A DNA stretch of 61,749 bases, filler included, from Basidioascus undulatus (Eukaryota): the NCBI GenBank assembly GCA_000826855.1. It is 9 parts of 9 records of this genome, joined end to end, with 100 filler letters (N's around TTAATTAATTAA, not from the genome) between each part and the next. Parts side by side here need not be neighbours in the genome. Positions count along the whole stretch, not along the records: positions 43,698 to 48,149 come from JTLS01002153.1; 8 more parts are not named here. One strand, 5' to 3'. Positions 4,461-57,324 of this stretch are shown piece by piece. Position 1 is the stretch's first letter; each line of letters starts with the position of its first letter. The position numbers and the translations under genes were made by a program. The notes under the pieces are model-generated. The model saw nothing but the letters and a program-made list of their open reading frames with translations, had not been told where the DNA came from and made no database searches.

Positions 4461-4560
4461 NNNNNNNNNNNNNNNNNNNNNNNNNNNNNNNNNNNNNNNN
4501 NNNNTTAATTAATTAANNNNNNNNNNNNNNNNNNNNNNNNNNNNNNNNNNNNNNNNNNNN
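4461..4560. other. Artificial contig spacer N44-TTAATTAATTAA-N44
   Basis: 100-nt linker with stop codons in all six frames; eight identical copies in the window. Confidence 0.99.
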
Positions 4561-9831: not shown

Positions 9832-11369
9832 CGGCATGCACGAGGTTTCACGCCTTTGCCTCGCTCGTGGATTCGTTACAACTGATCGACTGGTATATGA
9901 ATAGCTTCTTTATAAATCCCTACTATTTAATCCCTCATGATATATTCAAACAAGGACGAACTACGGACAAGGCTTACAAGCCTTCGACTGCGACGTTGAT
10001 CGTACTTCTTGCCTCCGTTGACTGCGTGGTGCTGATTGCCTCAACGAGACACGCCAGGGTTCCTACAGGCTGTCAATGGATTTTGTTTTGCTAGGTCGAA
10101 AAGACTGACTGGTCAAATGCATGTCGGTCTTCTTTTACTTCGCGCGGACGCAGCACGGACGGGATCCATATCGACAGAGGACAAGACAGTCCGAGCCACT
10201 TTAGGAGCTAAACAAGTGGCCTCAGTCTGTAAAGAAAGCGCAATTCAAGTGATGGGGGTGTACTACACCCTGCTGCACAGGTTGATCCTCCTTTCTGGAG
10301 AGTTCAAGTGTGACGAATGTGATGACTCTTGAGCGTGCCTCGGTTTACCCAGGCGTTCAGTTGAGCTCTGTCCCTTAGTCTGTATGCTTCTTTGACGCAA
10401 GCCGTAGGGGCATATCCTTAGAACAATCACTTTGTATACCATTGGTGAAGGTGAAGTCCCAATGGGGACTTCCCTCGGAGGCTTTGCAAAGTGGCAGTCC
10501 AGAGTTAACATTGTGAAGGTTCAGTTACGCCCCAGCGGACCTGGAAGAAACAGAGAAAGGACAGAACCCCTTGGGCCTCTAATTCAATGGGGGGAACGGA
10601 TAGGCTTGGATACCGATGCCTCAAAATTCGACAGGCTTACAGTGGCAGCTGTGCTCACTGTCTGGTTGTGCTGGATTCAGATCGCGATCCGAAACATGGG
10701 CCGGTCCTATCTCTCTAGGCTCAAATTCATCTAGTATATGTGCCGTTTATATCTAGCTACATGTACAACGCGTCCCAAACGTCCGCTACTGTCGTACACC
10801 GTCCTCGCGTCCTCTCGCAGCTTGCAGATCTCGAGCGCATTGGAAGGACATGCCCGCGATACGACCGGGTTGTCTTTAGCTTTCAAAATGGAAGCTTCTA
10901 TCATGGGATCTACTGGCTTTAAAGACAGTACTTGTGGAAGTCTAGGGACACTCCCTCGCATCGCGGTCTCTAGACCAAGTCTGGCTGCTTCCCAACTGTT
11001 TTTCCATTCGCGGAGCCGCCTTATTTCGAATGGTGTGCCCTCACAAAGCAGAGTGCGATATGCATTTCAATGTTCAGCATCCAGAAGTATCCTTGGCGGA
11101 TGTCTTTCTGCTAAGCCGACATCTGAGAGACGCAAGGCTTGCAGGGGCTGGCCTGAAGATCTTCAGGCTAAGTCTATGGCCTCGGATCCACGTCCTACCT
11201 AATAACCTACATGAACCGAAACACTGCGGCTAAGAATTCTAGATACGCATCTAACGGTATTTCCGAACGCCGCCGTTTCTGTCCCTCCCGGCCCCACACT
11301 TTCCCCTTCCTTCCTTCCCTTCCACTCATCACATCACTTTACCCTTTAGGCCGCCTTGCGTCGAGTATA

Positions 11370-29952: not shown

Positions 29953-30052
29953 NNNNNNNNNNNNNNNNNNNNNNNNNNNNNNNNNNNNNNNNNNNNTTAA
30001 TTAATTAANNNNNNNNNNNNNNNNNNNNNNNNNNNNNNNNNNNNNNNNNNNN
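29953..30052. other. Artificial contig spacer
   Basis: N44-TTAATTAATTAA-N44. Confidence 0.99.
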
Positions 30053-34511: not shown

Positions 34512-34611
34512 NNNNNNNNNNNNNNNNNNNNNNNNNNNNNNNNNNNNNNNNNNNNTTAATTAATTAANNNNNNNNNNNNNNNNNNNNNNNNNNNNNNNNN
34601 NNNNNNNNNNN
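34512..34611. other. Artificial contig spacer
   Basis: N44-TTAATTAATTAA-N44. Confidence 0.99.
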
Positions 34612-39067: not shown

Positions 39068-39167
39068 NNNNNNNNNNNNNNNNNNNNNNNNNNNNNNNNN
39101 NNNNNNNNNNNTTAATTAATTAANNNNNNNNNNNNNNNNNNNNNNNNNNNNNNNNNNNNNNNNNNNN
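39068..39167. other. Artificial contig spacer
   Basis: N44-TTAATTAATTAA-N44. Confidence 0.99.
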
Positions 39168-41694: not shown

Positions 41695-43466
41695 CTAAGC
41701 CCTCACCTCCTCACCACCCAAAAGCCGCCCGCCCACCTCCACCCGCTCCGCCCACTCCTTCTTCTCCCCCTGCCCCACCTCCTCGCCATCCTCGAAGCTC
41801 CGCATCCCCCGGAGACCGAGGCGCGAAAGCATCGCGCCGTCGGTTTGCCATGAGCTTTGGTGGTGGAGAGGGTGGGGGTGGAAGGCGGGTTAGTGGGTGT
41901 GGGAGGGAAGGGAGGAGAGGGGAGAGGGAAGACGAGAGGGGAGAAAGGGGAAAGGGGAAAGACGCACTTGGTGGGGGTCGTCAGCATCCGCTCGCCAGTG
42001 AAGATCGCGTTTGCGCCGGCCATGAAGCCTATTCCCCCATCCCATGTCAACACACACCCAGTCAACGGAACCCATGAGAGAAGGAGAAGAGGGAAGGAGG
42101 GACTCGGGCGCGCGGAGAAAGGGAGAATGGGGGAACGCGGAAAGGGGAAACGGGAAAGGGAAAGGGAAAGGGGAAAGGAGAACGGAAGGGAACGCACACA
42201 TCCCCTGCTCCATCTCGGAGAACATCGTCCGGCCCGCGGCGATGCGGATGATGGACTTGGGAAGGACGAGGCGCGCGGTAGCGATGGTGCGGACGACGTC
42301 GTGGATCGGGACGGGCTGCGTTCCGGACACGTTCAGATTGGGTCAGTCGGTATGCTCCGCTTGTCAATATACGGTCTTGGCGGGAGGCAGGGAGGGAAGA
42401 AGAAAGGGAAAGGGCAGGAAGGAGAGGTCGGAGTGTGGGATGGGAAAGATAAAAAAAATTTAAAAGAAAAACCAAACCCTCACCTCGTTCCCCTCCAACG
42501 GCGTACCCTCAATCGGCACCAGCGCATTGACAGGGAAGCTCTCCGGGTGCTCCTCGAGCTTGCTGAGCTCCCAAATGAGGCCGACGCGGTCCTCGCCCGC
42601 TTCCCCCAGGCCCAAGATCCCACCGGAGCAGACCGAGATCCCCGCGTCCCGCACGGCCTGCAGCGTCGAGAGACGGTCGTCGTACGTGCGGGTCGTGATC
42701 ACCTAAGGAGAGGGGCGGGAGTCAGTGGGCGGGTGATGAGAGGGGGAAGAGAGAAAGAGAGAGAGAGAGAGAAAGGGGGAGGAGGGAAAGGGCAAAGTGC
42801 AAAATGATTATGGGGGACAACGGGAGGGAAGCGAGGAACAAGGAAAGGGGACGGGAAGGAATGCGAGGAAGGGTCGATAGGAGACGGGGACGAGGTTGGG
42901 GACAGAAGGAAAAGGGGGAGAGGGGGAACGTGGAAAGAGGGACGGGGAAGAAGAGCGCTGGGGAGAGCGGTGCACGCACAGAAGGATAGAACTCCCTGCT
43001 CGTGTCGAGGTTGTGGTTGTACGCGGTGAGGCCGGCGTCCTTGAGCTGGCGCGCCTGCTCGGGCGTGAGCATCCCCAGGGTGGTGCACACTTCCATGCCC
43101 ATGCCGCTGTCATCCTCCTCTTCACATCAGTATCTTTGCCCCTCGCACTCCCGCCAGCGCAGCTACAGCGGGAATAGGTCGTCGGGAAAATGAAAGAAGG
43201 AGAGGGGGAGAAAGAAAGGGAAGGTAAGAAGGAAAGCGCACTGACCGGATCTCCCTAACCATCGCCAAAATCCGCTCGAACCCGCGCTTCCTGCCACCGA
43301 CGTCGCGCCACGCGGCGCCCATGCAGAAGCGCGTGCTGCCCATCTCCTTGGCCCGCCTGGCCTCGACGAGCACGGGTTCGAGCTCCAGCAGCTTGGACGC
43401 GGAGGTGGGGGTCGAGTAGCGCGAGGACTGAGAGCAGTAGGAACAGTCTTCGGAACAGCCGCCGGT
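41695..43466 (-). CDS. BIO2: Biotin synthase (radical SAM), 5'-truncated
   Basis: [17 protein letters not shown] (CxxxCxxC), [67 protein letters not shown]. Confidence 0.96.
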
Positions 43467-43597
43467 CTGTGGGCGGGAAGGAGAGCGTCAGCTCGTCTTT
43501 CTCGGCTGACAGTGCGAGGGGGGAGAAGAAAGGGGGAGGGGAGGAGGGGAGTATAGGAAAGTGAGGAGGTGGGAAACAGAGAAAGGAGTAAGGGACG

Positions 43598-43697
43598 NNN
43601 NNNNNNNNNNNNNNNNNNNNNNNNNNNNNNNNNNNNNNNNNTTAATTAATTAANNNNNNNNNNNNNNNNNNNNNNNNNNNNNNNNNNNNNNNNNNNN
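43598..43697. other. Artificial contig spacer
   Basis: N44-TTAATTAATTAA-N44. Confidence 0.99.
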
Positions 43698-43833
43698 GAA
43701 TGTGACAGGGGAGGTGACAAGGGTGACAGTTGTCAATGACAGAGGCTCCAGCGATGCTGATGCTCAGGCTTTCAGCATGCTAGCAACAGAGCTTGTTCAG
43801 AGTGGTAAGGTTGAATGCTAGAGTCAAATTCAC

Positions 43834-45119
43834 TTACTGCTCCAAGCATGACCTTAGAGCAGATTCTTTGGTGAAGAGAATGCACTCTTTGTCCAGGAGT
43901 TCCCTTTTCTGAACCTCCAAGTTCTCCATTTGCTTGCATAAAGTTTCTTCCTGTTCAGCAAACTCTGCAGTACTAGGACATAGTATGTTACAGCCTGCAA
44001 GACTCTGCAACAGCCCAATGTTACTCACTGAGTAAGGCAGCATGACATGTTTGACCATGTCCACGATGCAATGAGCGGCTTTGCTAGTAGATGGGTTGGG
44101 CCACTGGTTAGGCTATGTTTTCATAATTCTAATCAGCACACACTGAAAATGTGCTACTACTACTGCAAGACTTTCGACCCACTTCCTGTGCAAGCAGCTT
44201 GTGTATGAATGTTTCTATGTCTACTGAAATGTGGGTGGAAGCAACAGTACCATTGCACACTGCACATCCCAAAGGTTATAGTCAGGCAGTTGCCTGGGAG
44301 GCAAAGTGTACTAAGTTCGAGTGCTCCTTGGCCATAAGCAACTGTATGCTGCTTACTGTACAGTGCACATCTCAAAAGCAAGACATCCTAAGCCAAAAAT
44401 GTCTGCCTTCTGGTCATGGCCAATGTGAGTTCATGGTGACAAAGTCAAACTCATAAAAACTCCTTGGCCACATTTCTGCATTCAGTGAAAGCTTACTGGA
44501 GCCAAATATCCAGGAGTCTATGGTTCCATTGAGCTAAATCAGAAAGAGTACCTTAACAATCCTCTTGTCGACAGACTCCTATGAGTGAAATGGCATGTGT
44601 TGTTTCTTCCTCGAGGGCTTTCACCAGTCCGAAATTGGCAAGTTTGACTGTACTGTCACGCTTCAGAAGGACTACAGAGCTTCCCATGAGCATGCAAGAA
44701 GCAGTGATGACATGCCAATAGACCCACTGTTTTCTGGCTTGATATCATGATGCAGAATGGGACGGTCTCCATTGCCACTTGTAGTGAAGGGCTGATAGAA
44801 CCTGGCAGAATATTGATCCTAGGCAGCTTTCCGGAATGATTCATTCTGGAATCCTATATCTTAGTGCAGTTTGCATTGAGGGTGTAAACTTGGTGGTGTG
44901 TTAGTGCATACCTATTCTCATGATGGTGTTCCAACAAAGAGCAGAGGTCCTCATTGTCACAGAACTCCATCATGATATGCAGCCGCTGATGACTCTGGAG
45001 ACTTATTCGAAAGCTATAATGTTTGGGTGTGAGAGCTGCTGCAACAGCTGTATCTCTGCAAGAAGGGCCTCCCGAGATTGACGGTGACTGCTGTTCTTGG
45101 TAATCTTGACAGCAAACTC
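43834..45119 (-). pseudogene. NimA/NEK-like Ser/Thr protein kinase pseudogene (introns retained, CpG-mutated)
   Basis: Kinase subdomains in order across exons: EFAVK, EIQLLQQLSHPNII, LHIMMEFCD, ILHHDIKPEN|ILLKRDSTVKLANFGLVK, IG|TPGYLAP|E, DQKADIFGLGCLAFEMCT, then a coiled coil. In-frame stops and frameshifts are present. Confidence 0.85.
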
Positions 45120-47284
45120 CTGAGCGAGTGGCAGTCAGTCAACATTCAATGATAAATGAATAGTAGAAAAAGCGATGGTTCACCGTTTTGTCCAAAATGT
45201 GTTGCTGACTTGCGGATGCCTGCATATGGAAATCACATGTGCATTGGAAGGAGTGGGCACGCAGTGCCTATGAAGAATTGGCAAGAGGGTAGAAATTCCA
45301 GGAGCAGATTACAGGTTTTGCAGCCCCTCATCTCGGACCGTGTCCAGCAGCAGTAGCAAGTGTCAGCCTCTGCACCAAACAGGCTTTCGAGATGAAAAAT
45401 GGGATGCACTAGCAATTCTGAATGTGCTCATGGAGAAAAGCGGTGAGAGCTGGTCTGTTTGTTTGCTAGAGTGATGTATCCTTTGAGCTTTCACGATCAT
45501 TTTTCTGTCATAAGCTGCGCTTTGCTGCCTTTTTCATTGTTTGCCCTCTGCTTTCAGCTTTTCAAGCTGAGACCGTAAGGTAAGCAGTAGAAGGATAAGC
45601 AAGCATGGAAGATGTGAAGGCAAATAGAAATAAGAAGGGAAAAGGAAAGGCAATACATTTGTTGGTTGTGTTCAAGCTTCATGCGTAGCCAATAACCACA
45701 ACTGTAGCCATGACTGTGACTCTGGTTCGTGACAACATAATACATGAAGCGACGATTATGTCCTGAGCCCACCTGAATCCAGCCAAGTCACAACACATCA
45801 AATACTATTTCTTTCAAACAATATTCCGAAGCGGTTGCGTAAAGCCTCAGTCCAACTCCCAAGATTTGATCGTGAAGCATGCCTTTATAGAATGCCTTAT
45901 GTAGGACAAAACATTCCTCGTCTCGTCCACTGCTGCCCCATGCTCAACACTTCCTTTTCAGTGATGGGACTTTAGTCTCAAGAGTGCGAACTTTTGAATA
46001 ACAAAGAGATACTAGCTCTCAGCTGCTCACTGGAGCTTTTTAGGTCGCTGCACCGTCACCTTCTGCCAGTGCTTATGCCATTGCTACTTTAAGTATCGCT
46101 GCATCTGTGGAGGGCTACGCACCCACTCCACCGCCCCAGCATCCTTCAGACTCCACGGACTCTACCTACGGAATGGGGATTGGGAGCACAGATGGCTGGC
46201 AGCCAAAGATGCCCAGCTGCACAAGGCTGGTATTTCTCTTGAGGAAGGGGACGGCTACTGCTTCCAGGTGATCTCGAGAGGCGGACGTGGGAAGATCTGG
46301 GAGGAGCAAAGTATTGGCAGTCTCAATAAACAGAATGTTCTCTGCTTGTGTGTTTGCGTGTGTGTTTGATGACCCTCGAGTTCCACAAGTGCACGCAAGC
46401 TGCACATTCCGAATCAGCATAAATATCTGTCATGAACCAAGCTGACGACATCACAGGATGGGTCACACCCTCAGGCTGATAATCCAGTTGCCACAGTCTC
46501 CATTGCTTTCCGCTCCGCGTCCCACCTGTTTACCCAGTTCCGCTCACTTCCGCTCCACCCTACTTTGCCACAGTTTCCACGAGTTTCCGTCCCCCTCTGC
46601 TTCCGCCTTGTTCTCTTCCTTTCTGCCCCTCTGCCTATAAAAGCCCCATTTGCTAGCCTTGCCCCTCATCCGGTCTTGCTCCTCCTGCCCCTAGGCCGTG
46701 CTCTGTCTCTAGTCTTTGCTGTCTTGCCCCGGTCCTCGCTCCAGTCATCTCATACCTTGCCATCCGTCCTGCTGGTTGTCCCCGTCGTGGGTCTGCCTCC
46801 GCCAAGCTCCATTTCGACAATATCTTTGTATATGTACAAACGGCACTTGTCGACGACCCCTGTTTGCATGAACCCCACCCCACAACGTTTTGAAGCACAA
46901 AATAGTAAGTGGACCAGTGCCGTCCTTTTCACATTGTCCCGTGTCTCCACAGCTGCATCTCTCACTATTGGTCATCCCCAATCCTCCCATCTCGCTTTCC
47001 CCGCACTTTATTACTGACGCACACATGCGTTGTTGGGCATACTGATGATTTCCTATGAGTGTGCGGGGTCTTTTTTTCCCCTGCTGATTAGTCCTGAAAA
47101 GGCGCGGAAAAGGCAGGGTCTGACAACGGGATAGACCTCCAGCGCGGTACACGTTTAAACTTAGGTGTGGAGCGAAAGATTCAGATCATGGGCATAGAAG
47201 TGGTTGAGCGTGAGGAACACACAGGCCGGCTCCATGAAGAGTGTGAACATGCAGCAACTTAGCATTGCGCAGTAAACCGCTGCA

Positions 47285-47417
47285 TCAATGATGCTTCTCC
47301 TGTTCCTCCGCACTCTCACTCTCACTCTCCTCCTCCTCTTCCTCCCCCTCATCCACAGCCAGTGCCGCGAACGCGCCTCTACCCACAGCCACCCTCGTCC
47401 TCACCTTTTCCTCCTCC

Positions 47418-47449
<32 letters not shown>

Positions 47450-48128
47450 ACTGACCTCTTCCTCGCTCTCCTCCTCCTCCCATCTCCCGTCGCTATCCTC
47501 GCCCTCCTCTTCCTCCCCATCATGCACCATCGGTGCGAGACCCTCAGGACCAAGCCAGATTCCCCGCCCCTGGCGCGCGCGGACAAGGTCTTCGAGCGCC
47601 AGGTCCGGGTGGGCGTCGTGTGAGGGCGGGAGGAAGGACCAGGGGATTTGGGAGGTCGCAAGGTGGCGGAGGACTGTGCGTCGAAGCTATCAGAAGACAC
47701 GAAGGAAGGAATGAAAGAAAAGGGGACCGAGACGCACCCATGTTGGCCGCGCGGTTCACGTCCGGCCTCCCCGCCTTGGCGGTCAAGAACCCCATCTTGA
47801 GCGCGTACCTCTCCAGCACTTCCCGCACTTCCGGCACCTCCCCCTGCCCCTCATTCTCCCTGCGCGGTCGCATGCCCTCCCTCCACGTCCTCCGATCCTC
47901 CACCCCCGCCCCTGCCTGCTCCTTCATCGGCGCGAGCGGAAGGACCTCCTCAAGCGGCATGCGCGTCCCGATAGCGCAGAGGATGGGCAGTGGCGCGCGG
48001 AGCTGCGAGATGGGCAGCGTCGCGCCGAGGACTTGGACCCAGAGCGGCGTGGACGAGGGCGCGACGAGCCCGGGGCAGTCGGCGAGCCGGAGGGTCGGGG
48101 AGAGGTAGAGCGTTTGGAAGTGCTTCGT
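47285..48128 (-). CDS. Circularly permuted large-subunit GTPase (LSG1/GNL1-like), C-terminal part
   Basis: TKHFQTLYLSPTLRLADCPGLV (G2/G3 motifs), YALKMGFLTAKAGRPDVNRAAN, and a long acidic tail. Confidence 0.85.
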
Positions 48129-48149: not shown

Positions 48150-48249
48150 NNNNNNNNNNNNNNNNNNNNNNNNNNNNNNNNNNNNNNNNNNNNTTAATTA
48201 ATTAANNNNNNNNNNNNNNNNNNNNNNNNNNNNNNNNNNNNNNNNNNNN
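48150..48249. other. Artificial contig spacer
   Basis: N44-TTAATTAATTAA-N44. Confidence 0.99.
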
Positions 48250-52696: not shown

Positions 52697-52796
52697 NNNN
52701 NNNNNNNNNNNNNNNNNNNNNNNNNNNNNNNNNNNNNNNNTTAATTAATTAANNNNNNNNNNNNNNNNNNNNNNNNNNNNNNNNNNNNNNNNNNNN
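52697..52796. other. Artificial contig spacer
   Basis: N44-TTAATTAATTAA-N44. Confidence 0.99.
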
Positions 52797-57224: not shown

Positions 57225-57324
57225 NNNNNNNNNNNNNNNNNNNNNNNNNNNNNNNNNNNNNNNNNNNNTTAATTAATTAANNNNNNNNNNNNNNNNNNNN
57301 NNNNNNNNNNNNNNNNNNNNNNNN
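57225..57324. other. Artificial contig spacer
   Basis: N44-TTAATTAATTAA-N44. Confidence 0.99.

Follow-up and report, generated by a model that had tools for sequence, protein, structure and literature searches.

The window analysed here, a stretch of 61,749 nucleotides from Basidioascus undulatus, consists of nine contigs joined end to end, eight of them about 4.4 kb each; it is not a single locus, and no feature is to be followed through a joint. A 4452-nt contig at 43698-48149 carries on its minus strand, from 45119 to 44132, a broken copy of a protein kinase gene in which subdomains II-XI follow one another in the correct order. The left end of the contig cuts this gene. Exons, introns and surrounding features are listed in Table 1.

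Table 1. Features of the kinase relic, its contig and the joints of the window, by position in the window
Feature	Position	Strand	Remarks
CpG-depleted island, single copy	43711-46427		CpG o/e low, TpG/CpA in excess
Predicted helix, 44 residues	43840-43971	-	AlphaFold2 single-sequence model
Exon, subdomains X-XI	44132-44293	-	...ISVDIETFIHKLLAQEVGRKS; HMM nodes 229-250
Intron 5, 63 nt	44294-44356	-	GTAAGC...CCAG, frame kept
Exon, subdomain IX	44357-44462	-	KADIFGLGCLAFEMC; Pfam Pkinase positions 173-192
Putative intron 4, 34 nt	44463-44496	-	GTAAGC...CAAG
Micro-exon TPGYLAP, 21 nt, activation segment / P+1 loop	44497-44517	-	HMM nodes 172-178
Intron 3, 59 nt	44518-44576	-	GTCTGT...ATAG, frame kept
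Exon, subdomains VIb-VIII	44577-44671	-	ILLKRDSTVKLANFGLVK...SLIG; HMM nodes 141-171
Intron 2, 56 nt	44672-44727	-	GTGGGT...GTAG, frame kept
Exon, subdomains VIa-VIb	44728-44853	-	HMM nodes 106-126 and 130-140
Intron 1, 58 nt	44854-44911	-	GTATGC...ATAG, frame kept; joined model aligns across
Exon, subdomains II-V	44912-45119	-	EFAVK ... HPNIIAF, then ...HIMMEFCDNEDL...
Dispersed repeat, about 360 nt	46428-46789		Diverged copies elsewhere; borders the island
Joints between contigs	4461-4560, 29953-30052, 34512-34611, 39068-39167, 43598-43697, 48150-48249, 52697-52796, 57225-57324		Each 44 N + TTAATTAATTAA (stop-codon linker) + 44 N

A sequence-only reading of this DNA had proposed that a series of motifs on the minus strand, in the order of a kinase domain, belongs to a hidden, intron-bearing copy of a NimA/NEK-like kinase gene. 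Each motif lies where that reading placed it, accurately to the base. With codon positions checked, EFAVK starts at 45119, ILHHDIKPEN occupies 44758-44729, NFG 44636-44628, TPGYLAP 44517-44497, and KADIFGLGCLAFEMC 44409-44365, all on the minus strand. With X at stops, the single-frame read-through P0004, which spans 44556-45134, passes the curated cut-off of the Pfam Pkinase model, scoring 34.0 bits against 31.7 with an E-value of 2.7e-8, while the frame-1 read-through (P0005) has no Pfam match. Among the first 15 ORF pieces, three match kinase models in Pfam, and the matched positions are colinear; the exon for subdomains II-V covers Pfam Pkinase positions 25-63 at E 4.4e-6. A kinase profile of 271 nodes, built from 110 panel proteins, was then applied to the whole 61.7-kb window, in which 1894 ORFs reach 15 aa. 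Only four match at E<=1; all of these are minus-strand ORFs of the relic and follow the order of the profile. The seven best ORF matches in the contig are colinear from node 30 to node 250, and nodes 30-68 and 75-114 fall in the exon for subdomains II-V.

Joining of the exon blocks was scripted from coordinates, with X placed at each break. The joined model scores 137.3 bits over nodes 32-249 of 271. The earlier reading would have been refuted by a reconstructed protein with no kinase HMM match, and the match is there. With a score above the curated cut-off and its subdomains in order, the relic belongs to the protein kinase domain family PF00069; it has neither the open frame nor the intact HRD and DFG motifs of an active enzyme. 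A profile search of contig ORFs detected no glycine-loop exon upstream of 45119. Searches with single pieces returned little: a word-index protein search with a 43-aa exon query gave 31 candidates, none of which scored; a metagenome scan with a 63-aa ORF gave 598 pattern matches, none confirmed; and the plain 43-aa ORF found kinase-fragment clusters only in a Protein Atlas search. Against solved structures, the piece containing HHD (44675-44818) found no match, and exon C alone found weak matches only.

Across four GT-AG introns, of 58, 56, 59 and 63 nt, the reading frame is preserved exactly. Since these introns are in place, the relic is a genomic copy and not a processed retrocopy, and the hidden gene with introns that the earlier reading described is there. 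The 21-nt exon encoding TPGYLAP is real; its HMM match is weak when it is taken alone. Putative intron 4 is doubtful, being short at 34 nt and needing a 1-nt frameshift just 3' of it, at about 44460.

The kinase copy is a pseudogene and non-functional, as had been claimed. Frameshifts occur near 45008-45006, followed by TAA in the old frame, in the exon for subdomains II-V; near 44780 in the exon for subdomains VIa-VIb; and near 44256 in the exon for subdomains X-XI. A further frameshift probably lies near 44460. In-frame TGA codons interrupt the exon for subdomains VIa-VIb (44843-44841) and that for subdomain IX (44433-44431). The catalytic loop reads HHD rather than HRD (44752-44744), and the magnesium-binding motif reads NFG rather than DFG.

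The earlier reading had named assembly error as a result that would overturn it. Two read sets, X1 and X2, are runs from different studies (2014 and 2025) that were assembled independently, and both assemblies come to about 35 Mb. In each, one unitig spans 43711-46513 with 0 differences from the window. Its depth is 17.3 and 36, compared with 19.2-19.6 and 40.7-40.8 in the flanks. Because X1 and X2 each carry a flag as a possible source of the assembly, the independence of this support is uncertain. The frameshifts and stops are genuine rather than assembly errors, on support that is good and not fully independent.

As to the family of the kinase, two segments of the domain rank closest to NEK structures. 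The frame-0 read-through, which covers subdomains V and IX, matches NEK2 among solved structures at E 4.2e-4; NEK2, NEK7 or NEK1 is the name in 15 of the top 16 rows, and the best kinase outside the NEK family is GCN2, at E 0.2. Taken singly, the two pieces give the same NEK1/NEK7/NEK2 ranking with non-significant E-values of 0.03-0.15. A search of 1.84 billion representatives with a 99-aa read-through found no close protein relative. Its sole match was P0002, at E 1.5e-4, which is itself closest to NEK1 and NEK2. The 99-aa query is so short that ordinary NEKs fall below the threshold, and the result therefore leaves room for NEK membership.

The comparison panel, 118 mixed kinases, came from a search with P0002 and is thus seeded by a NEK-like match. 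Within it, the joined relic scores highest, 95.3 bits, with a Giardia protein named NEK, followed by STK36 at 75.2, PAK-type kinases at 61.5 or less, and CDPK-type kinases at 57.4 bits. The Giardia protein is itself NEK2-like (263 bits, against 136 for the best non-NEK). Among family profiles run on the relic, the NEK-like profile scores 120.8 bits, CDPK 91.6, PAK 63.5 and AGC 50.1, a lead of 29 bits over the next family in a panel seeded from a NEK-like match. The longest exon (exon A) counts against NEK, its best matches being CDPK/CAMK kinases. NEKs carry LKPAN and MSPE-like motifs, whereas the relic reads IKPEN and LAPE, and the joined model aligned to the profile has about 10 extra residues inserted between APE and subdomain IX, a further difference from NEKs, besides its breaks and lost catalytic motifs. 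NEK affinity is thus moderately supported by these comparisons and quite probable, with a leaning that is not clean. The NimA/NEK assignment of the sequence-only reading finds support in the NEK2 structure match and the NEK-like profile, and none in the longest exon.

NEK2 and NimA have a coiled coil or leucine zipper after the kinase domain, and a comparable element is predicted downstream of the relic's domain. In the AlphaFold2 model, the helix comprises residues 48-91, with pLDDT of 77-97 in blocks and above 90 over most of its length. Phe or Leu occupies six of six positions spaced seven residues apart. The predicted helix looks like a coiled coil of the leucine-zipper type, in agreement with the coiled coil that the earlier reading had noted after the domain. 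It ends at a splice donor, CAG followed by GTAAGT, and the gene therefore ran past the contig end at 43711.

The relic lies in an island from which CpG has largely disappeared. CpG o/e is lowest at the left end of the island (0.14-0.27): the exons have 0.27, the introns 0.15 and the 3' tail 0.14. Upstream of the gene the ratio reaches 0.52; the adjacent repeat has 0.63, and the right-hand part of the contig 0.84. Over exons, introns and tail alike, TpG/CpA o/e is 1.47-1.54, and it falls to 1.03 in parallel with the recovery of CpG. In a sliding profile the depletion fades smoothly into the flanks over about 3 kb, as far as a neighbouring gene of normal composition that is apparently expressed. 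All four NCG contexts are depleted (o/e 0.15 for ACG, 0.20 for GCG, 0.30 for CCG and 0.40 for TCG), and TpA, at 0.44-0.78, shows no excess. The other eight contigs have a median CpG o/e of 1.07 and a minimum of 0.54 in 209 windows of 500 nt. CpG decay of the relic is strongly supported: over an island of at least 2.7 kb, about 75-85% of CpG sites have been lost to TpG/CpA. Loss in every context, with gain of TpG/CpA in coding and non-coding sequence, is the pattern left by deamination of 5-methylcytosine. Exons have lost CpG as deeply as introns, so nothing points to purifying selection. GC content drops from about 58% to 45% in the relic, more than CpG loss alone accounts for, so other neutral decay has also occurred.

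Elsewhere in the window, a single 500-nt stretch of the remaining eight contigs, 10251-10750, falls below a CpG o/e of 0.6 (0.54, GC 0.50). The dip is mild and sits inside a 25-kb contig.

A codon test bears on the same question from the protein side. Each possible CpG-loss transition in the exons (TG>CG, CA>CG) was reversed, and the result was scored on the kinase profile. Gains of more than 1 bit came from 17 of 78 CpG-restoring changes, but from only 7 of 152 matched T>C/A>G changes outside CpG (p = 1e-4 by Fisher's test and 3e-5 by the Mann-Whitney test). The difference is weaker, at p about 0.01, when all forward transitions and transversions serve as the comparison. Most of the signal comes from changes that restore Arg, and without them the contrast with the matched control is not significant (p about 0.08-0.1). 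The sequence-only reading had explained four departures from consensus motifs by one CpG transition each, and all four reversals are among the gainers. Two of them top the list, N to D at 44636 (AAT>GAT, +5.35 bits) and H to R at 44748 (CAT>CGT, +4.71 bits); V to A gains 2.07 and S to G 1.34 bits, again by single CpG-restoring transitions. Both in-exon TGA stops revert to Arg codons, which agrees with their proposed origin from CGA. Together with the CpG o/e values, the codon test upholds the claim that transitions from CpG to TpG/CpA dominate the damage. The relic is also rich in His (15 of 235 residues, or 6.4%, where the panel has 2.3%) and in Cys (3.8%, panel 1.7%). A change of CGN codons to CAN and TGN would have this effect, in a comparison confounded by a panel of AT-rich protist kinases.

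Our reading, which we consider probable, is that the relic is a non-functional NEK-type Ser/Thr kinase gene decayed at CpG sites in a repeat-associated and probably methylated region. The locus would have ended up in repeat-associated, CpG-methylated chromatin, been silenced and so freed from selection, perhaps in that order relative to the decay. Spontaneous deamination of 5-methylcytosine would then have turned CpG into TpG/CpA in exons, introns and flanks alike; Arg codons would have become His, Cys and stop codons, with the HRD and DFG motifs destroyed on the way, and small indels would have added the frameshifts. CpG methylation of the locus is here deduced from base composition. The equal depth of loss in exons and introns, its independence of context, its gradual fade and the adjoining repeat together fit a repeat-associated methylated domain.

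Comparable decay has been described in related fungi. Horns et al. (2012, PMC3318451) ascribe the excess of CpG transitions in Agaricomycotina repeats to deamination of methylated cytosine. For Pleurotus, Borgognone et al. (2018, PMC6191308) place CpG methylation on transposons and describe genes within 1 kb of transposons as mostly methylated and silent. The relic locus matches both the deamination pattern and the spread of methylation to genes: CpG has been lost to TpG/CpA in all contexts, beside a repeat. It differs from the decayed repeats of Agaricomycotina in being a single-copy gene of host type rather than a transposon.

A duplication-triggered, RIP-like hypermutation that actively destroyed a fresh duplicate of a cell-cycle kinase gene is a rival account; the sequence-only reading had offered a RIP-like process, second to methylation-driven deamination, as what silenced a DNA-level duplicate. 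CpG loss is very strong and local, and the region adjoins a repeat. As under RIP, in its Neurospora form (CpA to TpA) or that of Pucciniomycotina (TpCpG), C-to-T transitions are concentrated, stop codons appear and the gene is destroyed. A CpG-biased RIP-like process that also affects genes has been proposed in another Agaricomycete, Rhizoctonia solani, by Hane et al. (2014, PMC4014442). The parent, however, should be about 90% identical if CpG loss alone separated the copies, by our estimate, and no second copy of at least 80% identity occurs among the contigs of the two genome read sets; nor did searches with 43-aa and 99-aa queries find a close protein relative. The unitig is single copy and TpA is not in excess, in contrast to ascomycete-type RIP. 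The earlier reading had suggested comparing CpG with TpCpG contexts, and there is no TpCpG preference of the Pucciniomycotina kind, TCG being the least depleted context (0.40 against 0.15-0.30 for the others). Sharp edges are missing too, as the depletion runs gradually over 3 kb, fades into introns and flanks, and does not stop at a duplication boundary. Horns et al. (2012, PMC3318451) report no RIP-like pattern in three Agaricomycotina species. Neither the duplicate nor the RIP-like process is borne out, and we regard this account as unlikely.

The composition of the relic (GC 45%, CpG-poor) is sharply unlike the rest of the window, and could be foreign rather than decayed in place, the relic then being transposon cargo, a transposon remnant or horizontally acquired DNA. 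At the left end the unitig stops, and so does the assembly contig, as would be expected beside a repeat, and one could lie there; to the right is a dispersed repeat; and the nearest protein matches are protist NEKs rather than fungal ones. Those matches, however, reflect the manner in which the panel was collected. Pfam searches of all 84 ORFs of at least 35 aa and one 25-aa ORF in the contig found no protein family of mobile elements, transposases and reverse transcriptases included, and none occurs in the 127 window ORFs that reach 135 aa, so the cargo idea of the sequence-only reading is without support in the available 4.4 kb. The island has the same depth as its flanks, intron lengths of 56-63 nt agree with the 64-nt intron of a neighbouring expressed gene, the shift in composition is a gradient rather than a step, and the excess of TpG/CpA shows that CpG was converted in place. 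A foreign origin thus seems quite unlikely. It would take still more to read the locus as a live gene, perhaps a pseudokinase, with breaks that are errors or are spliced out in an unusual way. The introns are well formed, and the order of the domain and the C-terminal helix are kept; yet at least three frameshifts and two in-exon stops fall inside conserved subdomains, contigs from the two read sets agree at every base, and exon CpG loss is as deep as intron loss. We give a live gene hardly any credence.

Decay of a NEK-type gene in a repeat-associated, probably methylated region also has bolder versions. Rather than a spare paralogue, the relic might be the NimA/NEK2-type gene of the fungus itself, or some single-copy gene, that was killed as methylation spread from neighbouring repeats; or it might point to an active mutator directed at CpG that works on unique DNA in this subphylum. 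We think either improbable. Were the former true, the loss of a host cell-cycle-type kinase to the spread of heterochromatin would be documented in an Agaricomycete.

The relic is a clean, small example of CpG-directed decay erasing a host-type gene in an Agaricomycete, with both catalytic motifs lost through single CpG transitions and the same decay in introns as in exons. Annotation based on ORFs misses relics of this sort, which mark probable methylated domains. The decay process has already been described for this fungal group, so the relic is one more case of it and establishes no new principle. Its weight would be greater if it were the only NEK-type gene of the genome, or one of many single-copy genes hit in this manner.

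Contamination by a CpG-methylated organism was also considered, and was rejected on the equal depth, the introns of fungal size and the gradient without a sharp boundary. A single unitig that passes from the island into the fungal repeat further counters it. Summed contig depth rises 5- to 12-fold over this repeat (46428-46789), and several contigs with 7-39 differing letters end at 46428 and at 46785-46789. The repeat has no Pfam, Rfam or tRNA match, and no copies of it or of the island occur elsewhere in the window; Rfam and tRNA scans of the whole relic contig returned nothing. A 25-nt direct repeat, at 46488 and 46565, lies within it.

In the right part of the contig, ORFs at 47481-48128 on the minus strand are acidic, with low-complexity runs of Glu and Ser and no Pfam match. 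A contig of a third read set, X3, omits 64 nt there (47674-47737), whose CT..AC ends correspond to a GT..AG intron on the minus strand. Since X3 skips this intron it looks like RNA, and the gene at 47481-48128 would be spliced and expressed. X3 contigs are absent over 43711-46078, and this carries no weight on expression of the relic. Next to the gene, at 47303-47480, is a CT-rich low-complexity tract of imperfect CCT/CTC repeats with eight overlapping 47-nt copies, at which the read-set contigs break.

Of the 127 window ORFs that reach 135 aa, 11 have Pfam matches, and no kinase is among these. The other contigs carry fungal-type genes, including those for a cutinase, GWT1, a DUF7137 protein and mitochondrial L11. 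The DUF7137 piece groups with fungal clusters. The mitochondrial L11 reaches at most 76% identity to database proteins, and its named matches, among the 120 matches listed, are all from Agaricomycetes; the host is therefore an Agaricomycete, and the searched collection contains no close sequenced relative of it. On the contig preceding that of the relic, at 41700-43500 on the minus strand, an intron-split gene resembles biotin synthase, with a BATS domain match and exons like those of radical-SAM proteins, and its composition is ordinary (contig CpG o/e 0.91).
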